A stretch of DNA of 64,000 nt from Patescibacteria group bacterium (GTDB lineage: Bacteria; Patescibacteriota; Patescibacteriia; UBA11705; DATKZF01): NCBI GenBank assembly GCA_049319825.1, contig JBMORT010000002.1, positions 204,072 through 268,071 of the forward strand, written 5' to 3'. Below are positions 2,177-51,912 of the stretch, in pieces; position 1 is the stretch's first letter, and every line of letters begins with the position of its first letter. The position numbers and the translations under genes are program-made. A model generated the notes under the pieces. That model ran no database searches and was not told the DNA's origin. It saw nothing but the letters and a program-made list of their open reading frames with translations.

Positions 2177-3907
2177 TTAGACTTCAATGACCACGGGCAG
2201 TACCATGGGACGTCGCTGCGTTTTTTTGAATAAAAATGCGCCAACTTCGTTTCTGAGCTTGTTTTTAATTTCGTTTGGATCGGCCGGACATTTGGCATTT
2301 TTATCCTTGACGATTTTTTTCACCAGACTTCTGGCGCTCTCCACCAATTCCTTGCTTTCCTTCATGTAAATGAATCCGCGAGAAATAATATCCGGACTGC
2401 CGACCAGCTCCCCGGTTCTCCGGCTGACCGTGGCGATTACCACGAACATGCCGTCTTCGGCCATTTGCATGCGGTCGCGCAATACAATATTGCTGATATC
2501 GCCGACGCCCAATCCGTCCACCATCACATACTCGGTCGGCACCCGTTCCTTGGTCAATTCGCCCATAATTTCCCGCCCTTTTTTATAGAATTCCATTACT
2601 TGGCCGTTATCGGCGACAAAGATGTTCGATTTGGGCATGCCCAGACTTTCCGCCAGTTCAGCGTTGGCTCGGAGCATGAAGTGATTGGCTTCGATCGGTA
2701 TGTAATATTTCGGCTTGAGCAATCGAATCAACATCTTCAGGTCTTCCTGCCGAGCGTGTCCGCCGGCATGGACATCCATCATTTTATAATGAAAAACTTT
2801 GGCCCCCTGCCTGGCGAGCGTGTCTTTTAAACTTTGAATGGTTCTTTCATTCCCGGGAATAACCGATGATGAGAAAATCACGGTGTCGCCTTTGGCAATG
2901 GACATAAAGCGGTGATCATTGTTGGCGATCCTCATTAACACCGCATTACTTTCGCCTTGCGCGCCGGTGCCGATCAGCACCTGTTTTTGCGGCGCCAGCC
3001 GTTGAAATTCTCCTTCTTCGACAATGGTGCCCGGCTTGATTTTTAAATATCCCAGCTGATGCGCGATTTCCACATTGGACTTCATGCTGCGTCCGTCAAG
3101 ATAAACTTTTTTTTCGAGTTTTTCGCAGATGGAGATGATCTGCTGAACTCGATTTAATAAAGAAGCGAAAGTGCCGACGATAATGCGGCCGGGAGCTTGT
3201 TCGAGTATTTGTTCCAAGTCTTGGCCGACAGTGCTTTCGGATATCTGGTAGCCGGGTTGCTCGGCGTTGGTGGAATCGGCCATTAGCGCTAAAACGCCGC
3301 GGGCGCCGAACTGGGCGATGCGGTTTAAATCCGCCGGCTTATCATTGATCGGGTTAAAATCAATTTTAAAATCTCCGGTGTGCACGATCATGCCGACCGG
3401 CGAAGTGATCACCACGCCGAAGCTATCGGGTATATTGTGGTTGACTCTGAAAAATTCCGCTTTCAATTTTCCCAGCGCGATGCTGTCTTTTTCCGGAATG
3501 ATTGTTTGAATGTTGAGTTTGGGCTGTTTGGATTCTTCGTGCCGCTTGGCGATGATGCCGGCCGTCAATTTGGTGGTGTAAATCGTCGGATTGCCCAGCT
3601 CCGGAATCAAATAAGACACGGCGCCGATGTGGTCGTAGTGGCCGTGAGTGATGATCACGCCTTTGATGTTTTTGATTTTGTTTTTTAGATAGGTGATGTC
3701 GGGAATGATAAAATCAATGCCCGGCATGTCTTCTTCTGGAAACTGCAATCCCATGTCGATAATGACTATGTCATTGCCGTATTCGACGACAGTCATGTTC
3801 CGGCCGACTTCTTCGAGTCCGCCAAGGGCCATCACGCGCAATTTATTGCCGCGCTGAGCCCAAGTTCTGGATAATGGCCGTCGCTGTCTGATTTTTCTTC
3901 TGTCCAT
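2177..3907 (-). CDS. rnj: ribonuclease J (metallo-beta-lactamase / beta-CASP RNase)
   Basis: ITHGHYDHIGA metallo-beta-lactamase motif, 576 aa; true start may be the internal MALGGLEEVG. Confidence 0.85.
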   Translation of the reverse strand: MDRRKIRQRRPLSRTWAQRGNKLRVMALGGLEEVGRNMTVVEYGNDIVIIDMGLQFPEEDMPGIDFIIPDITYLKNKIKNIKGVIITHGHYDHIGAVSYLIPELGNPTIYTTKLTAGIIAKRHEESKQPKLNIQTIIPEKDSIALGKLKAEFFRVNHNIPDSFGVVITSPVGMIVHTGDFKIDFNPINDKPADLNRIAQFGARGVLALMADSTNAEQPGYQISESTVGQDLEQILEQAPGRIIVGTFASLLNRVQQIISICEKLEKKVYLDGRSMKSNVEIAHQLGYLKIKPGTIVEEGEFQRLAPQKQVLIGTGAQGESNAVLMRIANNDHRFMSIAKGDTVIFSSSVIPGNERTIQSLKDTLARQGAKVFHYKMMDVHAGGHARQEDLKMLIRLLKPKYYIPIEANHFMLRANAELAESLGMPKSNIFVADNGQVMEFYKKGREIMGELTKERVPTEYVMVDGLGVGDISNIVLRDRMQMAEDGMFVVIATVSRRTGELVGSPDIISRGFIYMKESKELVESARSLVKKIVKDKNAKCPADPNEIKNKLRNEVGAFLFKKTQRRPMVLPVVIEV

Positions 3908-4034
3908 AATGTGTTCGATGTTTAATTATTAAAGAGAGAGCGGCGCCGCCTTCGGCGGCCACCATAAATTTCGGATCTCGCCGAAATTCGGGATCATTAT
4001 TTGAAGATATGGAATTCTTAAACGATGAATGTCG

Positions 4035-40911: not shown

Positions 40912-41859
40912 TCACAAGTCAACATTAAGTATAGATACCTCCGGTGGATTAAATAAACGCGCGCGCGGGCCGGTTTCTCCCACTCCCGGAGTTATAAACA
41001 ATTGAGTTTGATCGAATCGAAACAATCCGGTGTCAAATTTTCTTCCCAGCTCATCCGGCAGCGGAGATAACGGGCCTATCAGCGGCAGCCTGATTTGGCC
41101 GGCATGCGTGTGACCGCTGAGCATAATATCGACCTGGTTATTCGCTTCCAGTATGTAATCAGGGTTGTGACAGAGCATCAGACTGGGAATTGATTCATTT
41201 ATCCCGGACAAAGCTTTTTCCAAATCAGCCTCGCCGGTCCAGATTTCCTTGATGCCGATGATGTTGAATTGCTGACTATTGATTGTTAATTGTTGATTGT
41301 CGTTTTCCAGCAGGGCAAGGTTATACTTTCGCAGCATTTGTCGGAGCACGTATGTTTTATCTTGTTGCTGCGAGCTTTTGAATTCAGAAAGGTGATAGTC
41401 ATGGTTGCCGCTGATGACAACCAGCGGAAATTTCCCACTGAGTTTTAATATCGGTTCGAGATATTTGGCATTTTCTCCGGCGCCATAAATATAGTCGCCG
41501 AGTAAAACTATCAGATCAGGATTTTGTTGATCTATGGTGTCAGCGATTTTTTGGCTGTAATTATATTTTTTAAATGGCCCAAAATGAGGATCGGAAACGG
41601 CCGCTATCTTAATGCGATCCGGCGATTCATTTTTTTTGATATCAACTGAATATTCTTTAACCGTGACCAGCTTGGGTTCGATGAAGCTGCCATAAAATAC
41701 TACGACAAAACCGACAATCAATATAATTCCGATTATCAATTTCCAAGCGTGTCTGCTGCCGTGTTTAAAACAAAAAAATGCCTTTAACAATTTATAGGCA
41801 AATAAGGCGCTGAATATAAGGAATGAATCGGTTATTATTTCAAAAGCGTAGAAAATCAT
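40912..41859 (-). CDS. calcineurin-like metallophosphoesterase, membrane anchored
   Basis: DPHFG, GDYIYG, GNHDY, GHTHAGQ motifs. Confidence 0.75.
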   Translation of the reverse strand: MIFYAFEIITDSFLIFSALFAYKLLKAFFCFKHGSRHAWKLIIGIILIVGFVVVFYGSFIEPKLVTVKEYSVDIKKNESPDRIKIAAVSDPHFGPFKKYNYSQKIADTIDQQNPDLIVLLGDYIYGAGENAKYLEPILKLSGKFPLVVISGNHDYHLSEFKSSQQQDKTYVLRQMLRKYNLALLENDNQQLTINSQQFNIIGIKEIWTGEADLEKALSGINESIPSLMLCHNPDYILEANNQVDIMLSGHTHAGQIRLPLIGPLSPLPDELGRKFDTGLFRFDQTQLFITPGVGETGPRARLFNPPEVSILNVDL

Positions 41860-41911
41860 CGTTATAAAAATTAAAGGTAACGTTTATGTATTAGAACGAT
41901 TTTAAATATTT

Positions 41912-41987
41912 TGGTAGCGGGGAGGGGACTCGAACCCCTGACCTCCAGGTTATGGGCCTGGCGAGCTGCCAACTGCTCTACCCCGCG
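41912..41987 (-). tRNA. tRNA-Met (CAU), initiator-type
   Basis: cloverleaf with anticodon loop CCCAUAA, A11:U24, mismatched 1:72 (C x U), encoded CCA. Confidence 0.8.
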
Positions 41988-42059
41988 ATAAAAAAAATAA
42001 TGTGGCTGTGCCATTCGAAGCGCACGCAATCAATGCGATAATTCAGTATATTCCTGTCG

Positions 42060-42079
42060 TTCTTCGCTGGCGCGAAGAA
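42060..42079 (-). other. tRNA 3'-trailer hairpin TTCTTCGC-tggc-GCGAAGAA abutting tRNA 3' end
   Basis: 8-bp stem ends 1 nt before CCA of tRNA 42080..42156. Confidence 0.5.
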
Positions 42080-42156
42080 TGGTAGCAGGGGCGGGGATCG
42101 AACCCGCGACCTGAGGGTTATGATTCCTCCGCTCTAGCCAACTGAGCTACCCTGCC
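42080..42156 (-). tRNA. tRNA with CAU anticodon (elongator Met or Ile2-lysidine)
   Basis: cloverleaf, loop AUCAUAA, C11:G24, encoded CCA. Confidence 0.75.
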
Positions 42157-42256
42157 CCACGGAAAATAAAAAATACCGTTTTAAGGTTCTTAAATATTAT
42201 AGCAAACATATGAATTCTTGGCAAGAAAAGATTAAAAAAGAGCATAATTTATGCTC

Positions 42257-43165
42257 TTATCGAAGTTTAATCTGAATCCATTTCTCAGCCGTGCTTTTTC
42301 TGTAATAAATTTGAATGTAGCTTTCGGTCTTTTCCGAGCGCAGGCTTTTTCGCAGCAGCAGCTGCGCCGCATGCAGCTCAGGGACGATTTCCGGGTCCAG
42401 TTCCAGCCCCAGGAATTGATACAGTTGAGGGCCGACCTTGAAATTCGTTTTTTCGACCAGCAGCTGCTTTGTCAGATCATACAAGGCCTGCTGATCAGGC
42501 GACATTGTTTTTTCTTCAGTGAATTTCGCGAAAAACGCGCTGATCAAGTCAAGCGCTTTGGCCGCGAGTTCCGGCTCGATCCTGGTAATGTGTGCGACGA
42601 TCGCCCTGACTCTTCTCAGGCCGTCAGAGGAGTCGATGGTGATCTGGCTGCGTAGCTTGCCAGCCTCATCAATCAGTCGATGATACACATGGCTGCTCAG
42701 ATAATCATTGCGATGCGCCAGAGCTTCAAGGACACGATTGTTAAGTGCGAATACCTGATCGACCAGATCATCTGTTTCTTTTTTCTCGGTTTCGACTTGT
42801 TGCCTTAAAGTCGCCAACTCTATCTCCAGGAGTTTGATTCTATGCTGGTGATCTTTAATATGCTTTCTGGCAATATCCCGTTTCTCGGTTAGCTTATCGG
42901 TGTCAACTTCCCAATCTTTGACAATATTTTGCCACGTCAGATGCTTTTTCGTTCCGAAAAGTCGGACGGTGACATTGGCCAGATCGGCGGCCGCTTTTCG
43001 GAATCGGTTATATCCCTGAGTCCACTTGGCTCTGGCCTTTGCTTCTACCTCAACCCATACGGAAAGTCCTTTTTTCAATTTGCAAAGCAATGATTCTTTT
43101 TGCTGAATCGGGTTTGGCTTTTTGGCCACGATTCTTCTCCTTTTCCTTGTCGTGATATTGAACAC
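42257..43165 (-). CDS. hypothetical coiled-coil protein
   Basis: 302-aa ORF, heptad-rich; alternative GTG start with GGAGA RBS at ~43127. Confidence 0.45.
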   Translation of the reverse strand: MFNITTRKRRRIVAKKPNPIQQKESLLCKLKKGLSVWVEVEAKARAKWTQGYNRFRKAAADLANVTVRLFGTKKHLTWQNIVKDWEVDTDKLTEKRDIARKHIKDHQHRIKLLEIELATLRQQVETEKKETDDLVDQVFALNNRVLEALAHRNDYLSSHVYHRLIDEAGKLRSQITIDSSDGLRRVRAIVAHITRIEPELAAKALDLISAFFAKFTEEKTMSPDQQALYDLTKQLLVEKTNFKVGPQLYQFLGLELDPEIVPELHAAQLLLRKSLRSEKTESYIQIYYRKSTAEKWIQIKLR

Positions 43166-43417
43166 GATATTCTATGTTAAAATTTTATTATAAAAATGTC
43201 AAGAAAAAAAATCCCTTAAAAGGGAAATGTGGCTGCGCCAGCCTTAGCGCAGTAGCTTGTCAGTAAAAGAAAACGTGAATTTTCAAGGCCCTTCTTCGCT
43301 GAAGCGACGAAGGGCATTCTTCGCTCTGCACAATGGCCGTGCCAGCCGTAGCGCCAGCCAATTATTACGTTTACTGCTGATCAAGATGTCGTCCTTCGCG
43401 TAAAGCTTCGGACGACA

Positions 43418-43437
43418 GCCTTCGCTGGCGCGAAGGC
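43418..43437 (-). other. tRNA 3'-trailer hairpin GCCTTCGC-tggc-GCGAAGGC abutting tRNA-Leu 3' end
   Basis: same architecture and loop as 42060..42079. Confidence 0.5.
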
Positions 43438-43524
43438 TGGTGCCGCCGGTCGGAGTCGAACCGACATGGACGTAAGCCCACACGATTTTGAGTCGTGCGC
43501 GTCTACCAGTTCCGCCACGGCGGC
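43438..43524 (-). tRNA. tRNA-Leu (CAA)
   Basis: 87 nt, long variable arm, anticodon loop CUCAAAA, encoded CCA. Confidence 0.85.
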
Positions 43525-43839
43525 ATGAAAAATTAATAATCTTTTTTAATCCACTAATTACTTAAATATTTAATATTTCCTTATTTATTAATGTTTTTCA
43601 ATATTCTTTACCGATACCTGATTTTTAAATATTTTTCTCTTTCTCTTGCTGCCGTTCTTGATAAAAATTTTTCTATCAAAATTGTTTTAAATGGCTTATA
43701 TGGTTTCGTGGTTCTATTGTATCCCAAATTGTGCTGTTTTATTCTTCTTGCTGGATTATCAGATATGCCAACCTATATGTATGTTCTTGCTACGCTAGAA
43801 ATCGCATAAGTAAAGTAGCTTTTCATATGAAAAAAATAT

Positions 43840-43893
43840 GTCGTGCGCGCCTGCCTGCCGGCAGGCAGGTCTACCAATTTCGCCACGGCGGCA
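43840..43893 (-). pseudogene. truncated tRNA-Leu 5' fragment interrupted by a perfect 20-bp palindrome
   Basis: matches tRNA-Leu nt 1-24 and 25-34 with CCTGCCTGCCGGCAGGCAGG inserted between. Confidence 0.5.
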
Positions 43894-44042
43894 ATATGAT
43901 TACGTGAAACATTATACTACAATTAGCAAAAATTGTCAAAAAGGAACGGATATATTATAATGAAATGGAGTTTATGAATCGGATATCAGGCGGGATATTG
44001 GCCGGAAGTAGATGCTTATTTAATTACCACCAATTATACAAT

Positions 44043-44807
44043 ATGGGCAAAATCGTCTCAATCGTCAATCAAAAAGGGGGAGTGGGTAAAACCACCACGG
44101 CCATAAATTTGTGCGCGTATCTGGCGGAATTCGGCAAATTCGTATTGCTTGTCGACATGGATCCGCAGGCCAACGCCACCAGCGGATTGGGGATAGACTA
44201 TCAAAATATCGATTACGGCCTTTATGAGGTGCTGATCGGAGAGAAATATTTTAAGGATATTGTTTTACCGACTAAGCACCAGGGCTTTCGCATTGCTCCG
44301 GCCACGCCGAATTTGGCCGGCGCCGGGGTGGAGATGGTCGGTCTGGATCGCCGGGAATTCAGGCTTCAGGACGCGTTGCTCGAAGTCAAGGGAGACTATG
44401 ACTATATATTCATTGACTGCCCGCCATCGCTGGGGCTTTTGACATTAAACAGTTTGGTGGCGGCTGATGAAATATTGATTCCGGTGCAGGCCGAGTACTA
44501 TGCTCTCGAGGGCTTGGGACAGCTCATGTACACGGTTGATTTAGTCAAGGAAAATTTAAAACCGGAAATAGACATCATGGGCGCGGTGATTACCATGTTT
44601 GATAAGAGAAATAATTTGTCAGAGCAGATAATGAATGAACTGTATCAATATTTTCCAAATAAAATTTTTCGGTCAGTGGTTCCAAGGAACGTGCGCCTGA
44701 CAGAGGCTCCCAGTCACGGCCTGTCTATTATTCACTATGATGCGGCTTCGAGCGGCAGCAAGGCTTATGAGAGGCTGGCGAGGGAGATAATTGATTTAGA
44801 AAAATAA
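44043..44807 (+). CDS. parA: ParA/Soj chromosome partitioning ATPase
   Basis: deviant Walker A KGGVGKTTT; first ATG after TTGTCA-17-TATAAT promoter. Confidence 0.85.
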   Translation: MGKIVSIVNQKGGVGKTTTAINLCAYLAEFGKFVLLVDMDPQANATSGLGIDYQNIDYGLYEVLIGEKYFKDIVLPTKHQGFRIAPATPNLAGAGVEMVGLDRREFRLQDALLEVKGDYDYIFIDCPPSLGLLTLNSLVAADEILIPVQAEYYALEGLGQLMYTVDLVKENLKPEIDIMGAVITMFDKRNNLSEQIMNELYQYFPNKIFRSVVPRNVRLTEAPSHGLSIIHYDAASSGSKAYERLAREIIDLEK

Positions 44808-48324: not shown

Positions 48325-48825
48325 TTATTGCTGCAATGCTCTAAGAACGAATGAAACCAAGGTATAGCTGAGGAAAATAACAGCCAAACCGATGGCCGCG
48401 TATAGCATGGCCTTCTTGCCTTTGTCAATCCGGCCTTCACTGCCGCCAGAAAACATCCACAGCACGCCGCCGTAGATGAATACGGCCAGAGCGATCGATC
48501 CGGAAACGCCGATAACCGATTTGATGATCCGGCCAATCACCACGTTGATGTCGGTTTGCTCCCCCGGTGTTTTGGCCAGAAAATTTGGTAAAATAATGTC
48601 CGCCGGCGTAGTAGATTGAGCGCCGCCCGGAGCGGGCGGTGTAACTTCCAGCGTGGCGGTGCCGCCCGGAACCTCGCCGGTCTGCGTGCCGCCGCCTTCA
48701 CCGCCCGTTTGAGTGCCGCCGGCGTCCGGCAGAGTTTGAGTCGCCAAAGCCAATGGCGCTGATGCGATCACCAGAGAAAATAGCAAAATTGTCGGAATTA
48801 ATAAATGGATTGTTTTGGTTTTCAT
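48325..48825 (-). CDS. TrbC/VirB2-like pilin-family protein
   Basis: signal peptide, G/T/P-rich repeats, two C-terminal TM helices with GGSEGRIDKGKK loop; internal Met start at 48825. Confidence 0.6.
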   Translation of the reverse strand: MKTKTIHLLIPTILLFSLVIASAPLALATQTLPDAGGTQTGGEGGGTQTGEVPGGTATLEVTPPAPGGAQSTTPADIILPNFLAKTPGEQTDINVVIGRIIKSVIGVSGSIALAVFIYGGVLWMFSGGSEGRIDKGKKAMLYAAIGLAVIFLSYTLVSFVLRALQQ

Positions 48826-48827
48826 AT

Positions 48828-50276
48828 TTATGTGCTGGGAATTATTTTTTTCCATGTTGATTTTTTAAAACTGCTGATATGCGTTTTGGCCGTTCGTGTT
48901 TTGACGAATTTAAGCCACTGGGGATTTGGACCCTTGCGGTGCTTGTCGATGATGATGTCAACGACATCGCCGTTTTTAAGCTTGGCGTCGAGCGGCACCT
49001 GCTGATCGTTAACGCTAGCGCTGCCGCATTTATTGCCGATATCCGAATGTATTTCATAGGCGAAATCAACCGGGGTGGCGCCTTCGGGCAGATCGATAAC
49101 GTCGCCTTTTGGTGTGAAAACAAAAATTCTATTTTGGAAAAAATCTATTTTGACCGTTTCTAAAAAATTTTCATCGTCTTTAATTTCTTTTTGCCATTTC
49201 GCCAACTCATCGACCCAGCCCAAATCTTCAATTTTTGTTTTTCCTCCCTTTTCTTTATATTTCCAGTGTGAGGCGATGCCGAATTCCGCTTGCTCGTGCA
49301 TCTGCGGCGTGCGAATTTGGAATTCAACCTGCTCGTGATTGTCGCCGAATACGGTGGTATGCAGCGATTGATAACCGTTCGGCTTTGGCTGGGCGATATA
49401 ATCTTTTATTCTGCCTTTAACCGGCTTCCATAAGCTGTGAATAATGCCCAGCGCCGCGTAGCAATCGGCAATATCCTTAACGATGATTCGCGCCGCCACC
49501 AAATCGTAGATGTGATTGATGTCTTTTTCGTTTTTTATCAATTTGCGGTAAAGGCTGTAATAATGCTTCGTGCGGCTGTACACGTCCAGATAGTGGACGT
49601 TATTTTCTTTCAATTTCCGTTTTAATTTATTAAGCATTGATTCCAGCGCGCGTTCTTTGATCGGCAGCCCCTTTTTTATTAAACCCTCCACCCAAATATA
49701 TTCATCGGGAAAACCGTATTTGAACGCCTCATCCTCCAGCTTGCCTTGCAATTCTCCCATGCCCAGCCGATTGGCGATCGGCGCGTAGATTTCCAGCACT
49801 TCCATGGCGATGCGTTTTTGTTTATCCGCCGGCAGCGCGTAGAGCGTTCTTAAATTGTGAAGCCGATCGGCGAATTTGATGATGATCACCCGAATGTCTT
49901 TGGCCATGGCCACGAACATTTTGCGCAAATTTTCAACATAGCGTTTCATGCCGCGGTATTTGACGGTGCCGAGCTTGGTAATGCCATCGACCATGTCGGC
50001 GACGTCAGCGCCGAAATTTTGTTTGATGTCTTCCAGCGTGTATTCGGTGTCTTCCGGAACATCATGAAGCAAGCCGGCGATTATTATATTTTGATTGACC
50101 CCAAGATCGGCGAGGTTTTGGGCGGTGGCCAGCGCGTGATCAATATAGTCGACACCGGTGGCGCGGCGCTGGCCGGCGTGCGCTGTTTTCGCAAATTCAT
50201 AAGCCAGCTCGATCAGCGCCAGATCGGCTTTGGGGTCATACTTTTTAACGGTTGTCAGCAATTTGCGAATGGTCAT
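48828..50276 (-). CDS. rel: Rel/SpoT-family (p)ppGpp synthetase/hydrolase (HD intact) with TGS domain, no ACT
   Basis: HD motif LLHDVPEDT, synthetase YQSLHTTV..RTPQMH, TGS TPKGDVIDLP.GATP.DFAY. Confidence 0.85.
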   Translation of the reverse strand: MTIRKLLTTVKKYDPKADLALIELAYEFAKTAHAGQRRATGVDYIDHALATAQNLADLGVNQNIIIAGLLHDVPEDTEYTLEDIKQNFGADVADMVDGITKLGTVKYRGMKRYVENLRKMFVAMAKDIRVIIIKFADRLHNLRTLYALPADKQKRIAMEVLEIYAPIANRLGMGELQGKLEDEAFKYGFPDEYIWVEGLIKKGLPIKERALESMLNKLKRKLKENNVHYLDVYSRTKHYYSLYRKLIKNEKDINHIYDLVAARIIVKDIADCYAALGIIHSLWKPVKGRIKDYIAQPKPNGYQSLHTTVFGDNHEQVEFQIRTPQMHEQAEFGIASHWKYKEKGGKTKIEDLGWVDELAKWQKEIKDDENFLETVKIDFFQNRIFVFTPKGDVIDLPEGATPVDFAYEIHSDIGNKCGSASVNDQQVPLDAKLKNGDVVDIIIDKHRKGPNPQWLKFVKTRTAKTHISSFKKSTWKKIIPST

Positions 50277-50283
50277 AATTATA

Positions 50284-51912
50284 TTATAGCAGATCTTTAG
50301 TTGAAGCGTATTTAGTTATCATCTTTTTGGCCAAATTTGATTTCACGAAATTCAGCCAAGCCGGATCAGGGCCTTCGGAATTGATGTCCGGAATGATTTC
50401 CACCACGTCCTCATTTTCCAGCTTGCGACTGAGCTCGGCCGGTTGATTGTTTACCAGCGCGAACTTGCAGAAATGTCCCAGATCCGAATGGATATGATAG
50501 GCAAAATCCACCGGCGTGGCCCCCTGCGGCAGGGATATAATATCGCCCTTTGGCGTGTACACGTAAATTTTTTCTTGGAATATTTTGCTCAGCTCCTCGT
50601 CCCAGATATTTTTTTGGGAAAATAGGCTGCTGGCTCGGAGTAAACGCTTGGCCCAGTCGTTTTCCACGGCCGCGCCATCTTTATAGAATAAATGAGCGGC
50701 GACGCCATATTGAGCTTGGTGATGCATGTCATGGGTTCTAATTTGAAATTCGGTCAGACGATTGCCCGGGCCGATGACTGTCGTGTGCAAAGTTTGATAG
50801 CCGTTTTCTTTCGGCGCGGCAATATAATCCTTGATTCTCTTGTGCACCGGCGGCCAGAGGCCGTGAATGATGCGCATCATCAAGTAGCATTCATCGACGG
50901 TATTAACGATGACGCGCAGTGCGAACACATCGTAAATTTCATTGAATGTTTTTTGTTTGGTTTTCATTTTTTGGTAGATGCTGTAGTAGTGCTTAAAACG
51001 GCCGTTGACTTCACAGTTGATGTTGTTCTTTTCCGCTTCTCGCTGCACGGCCTTTTTCAGTTTATTAATGTATTTATCCCTGATTTTTTTATTCTCTTTG
51101 CCGAATTTGTCGGCGATTTTTTGATATTCTTTGGGCTGCAGGATGCGGAATGCGTGATCCTCCAGCTGCCAGCGTACGCGCCAAATGCCCAGCATGTTGG
51201 CGATGGGTGCTAAAATTTCCTTGGCTTGTTTGGCCAAAAGATATTTGTCTTCAAGCGCGATTTTCTCGTCGTTGCCTAGCGAATCGAGCATCGAGGCCAT
51301 CTTGATGAAAATAACGCGAACATCTTGCGCCATTACCAACATCAGTTCTTTGATGTTGTTGTTGAAACTTTTCGTTTTATTGGCCAAGTGATTTATTTTT
51401 CTGTATTTTTTTAATATTTCCAGCGCGTGATTGCCCAGCTCCTTCTTTATCATCGGATCAAAATCATCGATTTCGTTTTCCAAATCGACATGATGGAGCA
51501 TGCTGGCGGCGATAGTGATCGCGTCAACCTTCATCGTGCTCAACAGCTGCGAAGTGTTGACTGAGTGCCAAAAAAACATTCGGTGACGTTTTTGATCCTG
51601 GCCGTTAAAATATTGATCAATGTAATCCAGCACGATTACAATTTTATAATTGTCTCTGCCAATGATTTTTTCTATTTCCGATCTTTTTTCAGGAGAGACT
51701 TGGTTGATTTTAAAAATCGCTGATGAGGCGATAAAAAAAGGAGAAGCATTGGCCATTGCCAGCTTCTCCGCCAGTATTAATTGTTTTTCGTAGGTTTCTT
51801 TGGTGATTATGTTTGCGTTTAGGCATTTTTCCAAATAATTCAAAGCTTCGCCCAATATTTCCGCATCAGGCCTATTTTTTTCGATGAATTCCTGGAGCGT
51901 TTTATTACCCAT
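50284..51912 (-). CDS. RelA-like paralog with degenerate HD domain, synthetase and TGS
   Basis: HD replaced by MLHHVDLE; synthetase YQTLHTTV..RTHDMH; TGS present. Confidence 0.8.
   Translation of the reverse strand: MGNKTLQEFIEKNRPDAEILGEALNYLEKCLNANIITKETYEKQLILAEKLAMANASPFFIASSAIFKINQVSPEKRSEIEKIIGRDNYKIVIVLDYIDQYFNGQDQKRHRMFFWHSVNTSQLLSTMKVDAITIAASMLHHVDLENEIDDFDPMIKKELGNHALEILKKYRKINHLANKTKSFNNNIKELMLVMAQDVRVIFIKMASMLDSLGNDEKIALEDKYLLAKQAKEILAPIANMLGIWRVRWQLEDHAFRILQPKEYQKIADKFGKENKKIRDKYINKLKKAVQREAEKNNINCEVNGRFKHYYSIYQKMKTKQKTFNEIYDVFALRVIVNTVDECYLMMRIIHGLWPPVHKRIKDYIAAPKENGYQTLHTTVIGPGNRLTEFQIRTHDMHHQAQYGVAAHLFYKDGAAVENDWAKRLLRASSLFSQKNIWDEELSKIFQEKIYVYTPKGDIISLPQGATPVDFAYHIHSDLGHFCKFALVNNQPAELSRKLENEDVVEIIPDINSEGPDPAWLNFVKSNLAKKMITKYASTKDLL

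Follow-up and report, generated by a model that had tools for sequence, protein, structure and literature searches.

Free-standing GIY-YIG homing genes of the phage T4 SegB type lie among or next to tRNA genes, are sporadically distributed, and are presumed to spread by break-induced gene conversion that drags along flanking tRNA sequence (PMC2330249). We analyzed a stretch of 64,000 nucleotides from a Patescibacteria group bacterium (contig JBMORT010000002.1, positions 204,072 to 268,071; hereafter the window), in which a truncated copy of the tRNA-Leu(CAA) gene, interrupted by a perfect 20-bp palindrome (named PAL), lies beside parA and is followed by the remains of a GIY-YIG gene and by the intact tRNA-Leu(CAA) gene. 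We consider it likely that a small selfish cassette once invaded the tRNA-Leu(CAA) gene and that this fragment is what remains of its upstream arm; the copy in the window has decayed. The parts of such a cassette would be a truncated copy of the target tRNA (the relic), PAL inside that copy, and a gene for a stand-alone GIY-YIG protein of about 78 amino acids abutting the intact gene of the same tRNA. The cassette shares with the SegB-type genes its location at tRNA genes, its sporadic distribution and its presumed mode of spread, and its homing-type traits comprise a GIY-YIG domain with the conserved Tyr, Tyr, Arg, His and Glu, sporadic presence and degenerate copies. However, SegB-type enzymes exceed 200 amino acids and possess a DNA-binding domain, whereas the cassette protein is a bare 78-residue domain of the Slx1/UPF0213 branch. 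The cassette also keeps a truncated target tRNA and a conserved palindrome, both absent from Seg loci, and it resides in cellular genomes and not in phages.

Three other systems deserve comparison. The topology of the cassette matches Campbell-type integration of integrative elements at tRNA genes, but the insert measures about 0.3 kb and not kilobases, no tyrosine or serine recombinase is present, the duplication covers the 5' part in type A, the type seen in the window, and the 3' part in type B (Algoriphagus and Bacteroidales), and a hairpin breaks the partial copy in every case. In collaborative homing, a free-standing endonuclease works with an intron that interrupts its target. There, as in the cassette, the nuclease gene stands beside its presumed target and an insertion interrupts a target copy; PAL, in contrast, is an unspliced insertion in a copy that is redundant and dead, and the functional copy is uninterrupted. 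The Slx1/UPF0213 proteins (YhbQ-like, "URI"; structures 1YWL and 1ZG2, and SLX1 7CQ2 and 4XLG) have the size and motif set of the cassette nuclease, although similarity to the solved structures is weak (E=8e-5 to 0.1). A palindromic partner would suit a relative of Slx1, whose nuclease activity is structure-specific and directed at branched or hairpin DNA. No linkage to tRNA genes, relic or palindrome is reported for Slx1/UPF0213 proteins in searchable papers. A description of the cassette, of the palindrome, of the LPAGRQ insertions discussed below or of a GIY-YIG/tRNA-fragment arrangement was likewise not found in the open-access literature, such an absence being no proof, and a paper on tRNA introns of Patescibacteria does not mention the cassette (PMC13011429). 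The cassette is thus apparently undescribed, while the kind to which it belongs, a free-standing homing-type nuclease at tRNA genes, is already known.

The split tRNA copy and the decayed nuclease gene in the window

On the minus strand, positions 43892-43870 (GCCGCCGTGGCGAAATTGGTAGA) are identical at 21/23 positions to nucleotides 1-23 of the intact tRNA-Leu(CAA), covering the 5' strand of the acceptor stem, the 5' strand of the D stem and the D loop. The two differences are C16T and G13A; the latter disrupts the D stem, a sign that the relic has drifted. PAL itself, a perfect palindrome (CCTGCCTGCCGGCAGGCAGG), occupies 43869-43850 and is assigned to neither strand. It is followed on the minus strand by 43849-43840 (CGCGCACGAC), identical at 10/10 positions to nucleotides 24-33, i.e. 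the 3' strand of the D stem, nucleotide 26, the 5' strand of the anticodon stem and C32. PAL is located exactly between A21 and C22 of the tRNA as a clean 20-bp insertion without target duplication. The repeat corresponds to nucleotides 1-33, the 5' part of the tRNA, and lies upstream of the GIY-YIG gene. The original prediction of a duplicated tRNA-Leu 5' half carrying a perfect 20-bp palindrome is confirmed by these data. Its two-part structure holds, with slightly different bounds: the copy starts at 43892 and not 43893, and the parts are nucleotides 1-23 and 24-33 rather than 1-24 and 25-34. The intact tRNA-Leu(CAA) gene was located at 43524-43438 on the same strand by ARAGORN and Rfam (tRNA, 57.5 bits). 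It looks functional, encodes CCA, and lies 316 bp from the fragment, close to the 320 bp first estimated.

In a BLAST comparison of the tRNA-Leu with the window, the first fragment block alone gave E=0.001. The similarity is above chance, as had been supposed, and we judge it significant mainly because the split-copy arrangement recurs in more than 20 independent loci, which is stronger than the E value. PAL is single-copy in the window even at up to 3 mismatches, shuffled sequences giving an expectation of 0. A Logan contig from SRR32167788 is 100% identical over 43416-43965, in-frame stop included. It may share the source data of the window, and therefore argues against an assembler artefact short of excluding it. 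A group I intron or a split tRNA was discarded as an explanation for the interrupted copy, as the three tRNAs are the sole Rfam matches in 41500-44200 and an open reading frame fills the spacer.

A sigma-70-type promoter is predicted on the minus strand at 43939-43911, 18 nt upstream of the fragment. It is formed by TTGACA (43939-43934), a 17-nt spacer and TATAAT (43916-43911), with 12/12 consensus positions. Counterparts lie directly 5' of the intact tRNA-Leu in relatives whose site is empty (L034, L035 and L038) and, in relatives that carry the cassette, ahead of the relic. From this comparison, the promoter in the window is best read as the ancestral tRNA-Leu promoter, and the fragment sits at the ancestral position of the tRNA behind it.

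The 316-bp stretch that separates fragment and tRNA, overlooked as a gene in the earlier work, encodes on the same strand MKSYFTYAISSVARTYI*VGISDNPARRIKQHN..., which matches Pfam PF01541 with E=4e-13. The reading frame begins with the ATG at 43826-43824 and extends to 43598. Nucleotide alignment with the intact genes of L028, L020 and L204, together with the family alignment, located three lesions: a TAG (43775-43773) where the family has the invariant Tyr16, an additional A in the run 43622-43626 resulting in a +1 frameshift, and, in the corrected frame, an early TGA (43600-43598). Judging from these alignments, the GIY-YIG gene of the window is a dead pseudogene. An alternative genetic code was rejected as the reason for the in-frame TAG, since homologues have Tyr there and the gene also shows the frameshift and a second stop. 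Its product would be 69% identical to that of L028. Between the end of the decayed reading frame and the tRNA lies an AT-rich spacer (43597-43525), a distance of only 2-18 nt in intact relatives according to the alignment.

The 41 homologues that were aligned are about 77-83 amino acids long and share invariant Y5, Y14, Y16, R26, H30 and E62. The best matches among solved structures, all weak, are UPF0213 protein EF2693 (1YWL, E=8e-5), SLX1 (7CQ2, E=0.014) and UPF0213 protein BH0048 (1ZG2, E=0.11). Although the top matches are weak, they would assign the nuclease to the Slx1/UPF0213 branch rather than to that of I-TevI or UvrC. A PHROG match annotated as homing endonuclease is also weak (E=7e-5). 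Membership in a defence system was considered and dropped, the PADLOC search for such systems giving no match for the nuclease.

In most of 80 Patescibacteria relatives, the best of which reaches 71% ParA identity to the window, tRNA-Leu(CAA) is divergent from the adjoining parA gene, usually at a distance of 70-250 bp. A GIY-YIG gene lies between the promoter and tRNA-Leu(CAA) in 8 of these 80 parA-anchored loci, and in six of the eight the order is promoter, truncated 5' tRNA copy with a GC-rich hairpin, GIY-YIG gene and intact tRNA. The cassette is present at the same locus as in the window in L028, L020, L007, L046, L031 and L216, the last with identical synteny (parA, relic, GIY-YIG gene, tRNA-Leu-CAA and two tRNA-Met genes). 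In L034 and L035, where ParA is 97% identical to that of the cassette-bearing L020, and in L038, where it is 92% identical to that of L031, the promoter runs directly into the tRNA. These empty sites supply the indel that had been suggested as a check on synteny. As anticipated, no relative has an intact second tRNA-Leu at this place, but either a single intact tRNA-Leu at the position of the fragment or the same cassette. As judged from these alignments, the cassette is a presence/absence polymorphism among close relatives. At the corresponding locus of L026 (about 3800-3990, minus strand), a tandem array of about 18 copies of the 8-nt unit CCTAATTT, with CATAACT-type repeats as well, was observed in the gap between parA and the tRNA-Leu promoter.

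Recurrence at tRNA genes of several phyla

Of 34 GIY-YIG loci, about 28 have the nuclease gene directly adjoining a tRNA gene of the same orientation. The type A layout, relic (5')-PAL-GIY-tRNA, is that of the window, L028, L020, L007, L203, L204, L205, L211, L215, L216, L218, L220, L125, L131, L154, L175, L180, L213 and L214. In type B, found in Algoriphagus (L202) and Bacteroidales (L210), the GIY-YIG gene comes after the tRNA and its terminator and precedes a 3' relic, whose T arm holds PAL, and a second copy of the terminator. L212 resembles type B, its contig beginning at the GIY-YIG gene so that the upstream tRNA is outside it. Besides Leu-CAA, the layout occurs at genes for tRNA Val, Asn, Ser, Lys, Arg, Leu-TAA, Leu-TAG and Leu-CAG, and the intact tRNA is kept at every cassette locus. 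Of the homologues taken from the match list by protein similarity alone, 10/10 sat at a tRNA-Leu gene whose truncated copy contained PAL, exact or altered (1-4 mismatches; in L205, a form shortened to 16 nt). This set includes the cultured Algoriphagus machipongonensis and a Roseivirga sp.

Nuclease clades are each linked to a single tRNA type. Nucleases at least 55% identical to that of L028 are at tRNA-Leu isoacceptors in 11/11 cases, their hosts being Patescibacteria, a lineage reading TGA as Gly (L180) and Bacteroidota. Their sister sequences are associated with tRNA genes for Asn, Arg and Lys. At Leu-CAA, a more distant clade is accompanied by other hairpins.

Several of these loci showed further features. 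The GIY-YIG gene of L180 (640-900) has TGA at four positions occupied by Gly in the family, three of them strongly conserved, and for this reason the contig (31% GC) probably uses genetic code 25 of the Gracilibacteria/Absconditabacteria type. Its tRNA-Leu(TAA) is followed, at about 990-1230, by three tandem repeats of the tRNA 3' end plus hairpin. In L214 (about 835-1050), the tRNA-Asn(GTT) located 3' of the cassette seems broken after GGCTGT by an insertion coding a Cys-rich, HNH-like peptide. Group I introns with HNH genes have been reported in tRNA-Asn of Patescibacteria (PMC13011429), and the insertion matches them, which would place two different selfish elements at one tRNA gene. In Bacteroidota, truncated tRNA copies with a different short hairpin lie beside the PAL-bearing relic (L203, 1255-1345; L202, 1306-1345), namely TCCCGAAGCTTCGGGA in a tRNA-Gly 3' copy and TCCCGATAAAATCGGGA in a tRNA-Leu 5' copy.

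Traces of recombination between tRNA alleles and of decay are seen at several loci. The acceptor stems of relic and intact tRNA differ in L020 (outer relic), L007, L022 and L080, and L003 and L006 contain displaced 3' halves beginning at A35 of another allele. In L022 (about 3680-3900) and L080 (about 2370-2600, minus strand), an intact tRNA-Leu(CAA), its acceptor stem lengthened by flanking inverted repeats of 12-13 bp, is nested in an older tRNA-Leu of a different allele, whose 5' and 3' parts, broken by GC hairpins, lie on either side; neither locus has a GIY-YIG gene. L215 carries two tandem [relic-PAL-GIY] units, the product expected of an unequal exchange between relic and tRNA. The nearly full-length dead tRNA copy retained in L205 suggests that the starting state was tRNA-GIY-tRNA, one copy then decaying. 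Decayed GIY-YIG copies are also found in L006 and L119. In relic-rich DNA downstream of tRNA-Leu, L003 (about 3340-3530) and L080 (about 2300-2470, minus strand) harbor hairpins with unlike stems and a common loop motif, CCCTACGTGG or CCACGTAGGG, which may represent a second family of hairpin elements tied to the more distant GIY-YIG clade.

The palindrome and the possible spread of the cassette

PAL is identical at 20/20 positions in the window, L028, L020 and L204, in an alignment whose mean column identity is 71%. The same 20-mer is present in truncated tRNA copies beside the GIY-YIG gene in L028, L020, L204, L202, L210, L216, L125, L131, L154, L175, L180 and L214. Unchanged copies also occur in Algoriphagus and Bacteroidales, where the nucleases share about 60% identity with that of L028, and more generally PAL is invariant where the nucleases have diverged to 55-65% identity. 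This conservation points to selection on the sequence, which might most simply be explained by recognition by the only protein of the element. In Leu relics, recurrent PAL sites are GGAA^TTGG, AGA^C, CGA^C and the T arm, and two or three PALs per relic are common (L175, L180, L203 and L212). In-silico removal of PAL restored an intact tRNA at 0/131 sites, so that PAL occurs only in redundant tRNA copies and the idea that it interrupts an otherwise intact tRNA was abandoned. In most type A cassettes, 18-30 nt separate a strong hairpin from the start codon downstream of it, and in type B cassettes the hairpin follows the stop codon after 8-13 nt.

PAL is not confined to relics. It was found on at least 120 metagenome contigs, mostly AT-rich and with unrelated flanks, and among the matches listed about 10% of the sites are in tRNA-derived fragments and about 90% are not. 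It is under-represented in coding DNA. Where it lies in frame, it is always read LPAGRQ, as in atpA, secA, a P-type ATPase gene, pheS, lysS, purH, uvrC and a GH115-like gene (L120, L163, L174, L090, L186, L118, L110 and L111). The closest AtpA homologues (84-90% identity) are without the 7 extra residues, a net difference of +21 nt. The copies cluster locally, and many sites lie in low-complexity direct-repeat tracts. PAL consists of two abutting 10-bp arms with no interior, and rare PAL-like stems hold a cargo of 11-13 nt. Two further proposals were tested and rejected: that PAL always stands at the apex of a longer hairpin, for which the enrichment is weak (2.5% of sites, against 0.6% of controls, have flanking stems of 7 bp or more), and that half-PALs form terminal repeats around larger cargo, of which there are only few cases (L086, L133 and L176).

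In the terms of known repeats, the claim that PAL resembles a miniature inverted-repeat transposable element (MITE) is right in that it was inserted and is dispersed in many copies, as the metagenome contigs and the comparison of atpA with and without PAL document. It is not a classical MITE, since it has no terminal inverted repeats around an interior and no target-site duplication in tRNA contexts, and it is the companion of one nuclease clade. Repetitive extragenic palindromes (REPs) with their associated tyrosine transposases (RAYTs) form REPtrons, in which the protein gene is typically flanked by its palindromes. Rickettsia palindromic elements (RPEs), of 100-150 bp, are palindromes that have entered conserved protein genes in frame, and we know of no partner enzyme for them. 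Compared by description and not by sequence, PAL is, as these are, a short GC-rich palindrome dispersed in AT-rich genomes, but it is only 20 bp long, perfectly palindromic and identical across phyla, and its partner gene encodes a GIY-YIG nuclease instead of a Y1 transposase. No Y1 transposase turned up beside PAL/GIY cassettes, no search having been aimed at it. PAL inserts in frame as RPEs do, but at 20-21 bp it is far shorter, which makes this a likeness and not membership.

Dispersal into unrelated flanks, the in-frame LPAGRQ insertions in housekeeping genes, local clustering and the variable position within relics all favor an explanation in which PAL moves on its own, as a miniature element of the REP, MITE or RPE kind that enters any neutral DNA, its presence in relics being incidental and the nuclease unrelated. 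We regard this as unlikely, although it is the alternative that survives best. PAL or a variant is in the relic of every examined member of the L028-like clade and its sisters, across phyla, while more distant nuclease clades have other hairpins; it stays 20/20 conserved beside a gene that has diverged to 55-65% identity, and it often occurs two or three times in one relic. Furthermore, GIY-YIG genes are commoner in PAL-anchored than in parA-anchored loci, with raw counts of 11 in about 0.66 Mb and 3 in about 0.64 Mb, respectively, the latter taken away from the anchored site.

For the cassette, we propose that the nuclease would break or nick the cognate tRNA gene of a cassette-free genome, and that recombination would repair the break using the tRNA sequence as a portable homology arm, either by gene conversion or by single-crossover (Campbell-type) integration of a tRNA-carrying unit. 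The outcome would be a nuclease gene between two tRNA copies, one functional and the other redundant, struck by PAL and eroding. In the arrangement of the window, the strong promoter of the tRNA itself could drive a single transcript covering relic, nuclease and tRNA, from which the RNase P cut at the tRNA 5' end would free the nuclease mRNA. PAL would most likely be a cis element for the nuclease, which could bind the palindrome as a dimer or recognize a hairpin/cruciform, in keeping with the structure-specific Slx1 relatives; operator, substrate and mobilized unit are its candidate roles. A role as "poison pill", making deletion of the cassette lethal, was set aside because the outer homologous segment, giving viable deletions, is usually the longer one.

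A broader version, which we put forward as doubtful, is that the nuclease and PAL form a two-part mobile system in Patescibacteria, Bacteroidota and others. The tRNA genes would then serve as a safe harbour for the nuclease gene, the tRNA being kept alive via the partial duplicate, and the nuclease would recognize PAL, as a dimer or on an extruded hairpin, and mobilize it. PAL would thereby have spread into stem-loop DNA, dead tRNA copies and in-frame sites of essential genes.

Competing explanations and meaning of the cassette

Several observations weigh against a selfish cassette at the tRNA-Leu gene. The nuclease, predicted as a bare catalytic domain of about 78 amino acids, lacks the DNA-binding domain on which classical GIY-YIG homing enzymes rely: no separate domain of this kind is present in the 41 aligned homologues or in the 120 protein matches listed (mostly 77-124 amino acids, longer gene calls included), where PF01541 is essentially the sole domain. 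If the tRNA gene is the target, the adjoining intact copy should be cut too, and its immunity would call for an explanation. In 5 of the 34 loci (L076, L136, L165, L171 and L172), the homologue is away from any tRNA. Hairpin-bearing relics without a GIY-YIG gene are found in L026, L029, L030, L022, L080 and L160, and relics could therefore arise by another process. Relic end points and PAL positions also vary (15/16, 21/22, 31/32, T arm), with no single insertion point. Lastly, COG4123 is now regarded as a tRNA methyltransferase family, and a cellular tRNA-related role may be possible for the nuclease given its links to COG4123 and TrmH. These links come from a 2006 survey that put such prokaryotic proteins into the Slx1 cluster and described fusions or operons with COG4123 and TrmH-like methyltransferases; its authors read the COG4123 pairing as restriction-modification-like and DNA-directed, and saw a hint at RNA metabolism in the TrmH-like fusion alone (PMC1564403).

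Such a role would have the GIY-YIG protein act as a host factor of tRNA metabolism, co-transcribed with its client tRNA, with the relics as by-products of local tandem duplication and decay rather than of mobility. The tight same-strand linkage to tRNA genes and the strong conservation of the protein family agree with this, as do the methyltransferase fusions and operons just mentioned, although the survey itself assigned COG4123 a role in DNA modification (PMC1564403). We find the proposal quite improbable, because the gene is patchy among close relatives (present and absent at 97% ParA identity), is a pseudogene in the window, L006 and L119, and is accompanied by foreign tRNA alleles and nested relics, by the duplicated tandem unit of L215 and by a 20-bp palindrome common to several phyla. 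In addition, the nuclease has no match in NCBIfam, i.e. among curated housekeeping families.

Partial tRNA duplicates are a classical signature of site-specific integration (PMC9897764), and 3' partial copies do lie downstream of tRNAs at some related loci. On the integrase reading, the fragment would be the scar of an island or prophage that integrated at tRNA-Leu and was later lost, leaving a partial repeat of the attachment-site (att) type into which the palindrome arrived afterwards. Of this reading, insertion or recombination at a tRNA gene stands. The integrase does not: it is the 5' half and not the 3' portion of the tRNA that is duplicated, and the repeats are separated by only 316 bp occupied by the GIY-YIG pseudogene (an insert of about 0.35 kb and not a kb-scale one). 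The integrase genes that were to be looked for are missing, with no recombinase domain within about 5 kb. Moreover, the same 0.3-kb layout with an intact GIY-YIG gene is found in more than 20 loci, and no integrase lies between the repeats at any of them. The integrase reading is largely refuted, and we give it very little credit. Least credible of all is that fragment and palindrome form a functional RNA leader, a regulatory or stabilizing 5' structure selected in this genome: the strong hairpin close to the start codon in type A and to the stop codon in type B would be compatible with mRNA-end protection, but in the window the downstream gene is dead and leaves nothing to regulate, the fold is no better than that of shuffles apart from PAL itself (z=-0.78), and a generic stabilizing hairpin needs no invariant sequence.

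Around the cassette, a domain scan identified genes for a metallophosphatase, ParA, ParB, a Band 7 protein and a glycosyltransferase, four further open reading frames without Pfam match, and one with only a sub-threshold match to the major facilitator superfamily. The parS-like site announced at 43893-43908 was not recovered: a scan with the 16-bp palindrome TGTTNCACGTGAAACA at up to 3 mismatches gave no match at 43893-43911, nor any full parS beyond chance in the window. A perfect half-site, ACGTGAAACA, does lie at 43902-43911, between the -10 box and the fragment and directly upstream of parAB. Just 3' of tRNA-Leu, the AT-rich spacer at 43285-43439 contains a group of GC-rich hairpins, such as CAGCCTTCGC/GCGAAGGCTG (43416-43439) and AAGGCCCTTCTTCGCT/AGCGACGAAGGGCATT (43285-43318). 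The Logan contig stops at 43416 within this cluster, which suggests that the cluster is a repeat. A few kb from parAB, two neighboring RelA/SpoT-family genes and a gene for a pilin/TrbC-like protein of type IV secretion systems (48325-51912 and 48828-50276) are ordinary in Patescibacteria and have no bearing on the cassette.

The cassette explains, without integrases, a class of tRNA half-genes in small-genome bacteria, which confuse tRNA annotation. It ties a widespread and uncharacterized family of stand-alone GIY-YIG proteins (UPF0213/bacterial Slx1-like) to a concrete genomic behavior and to a candidate DNA partner. As one host, Algoriphagus machipongonensis, is cultured, the predictions made here can be tested at the bench. 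PAL, identical across phyla and in frame in essential genes, offers a tractable model for the spread of tiny palindromic repeats. If the two-part system were true, it would be a minimal nuclease-driven analogue of REP/RAYT and would provide the first function for the widespread UPF0213 family, to which the relatives of E. coli YhbQ belong.

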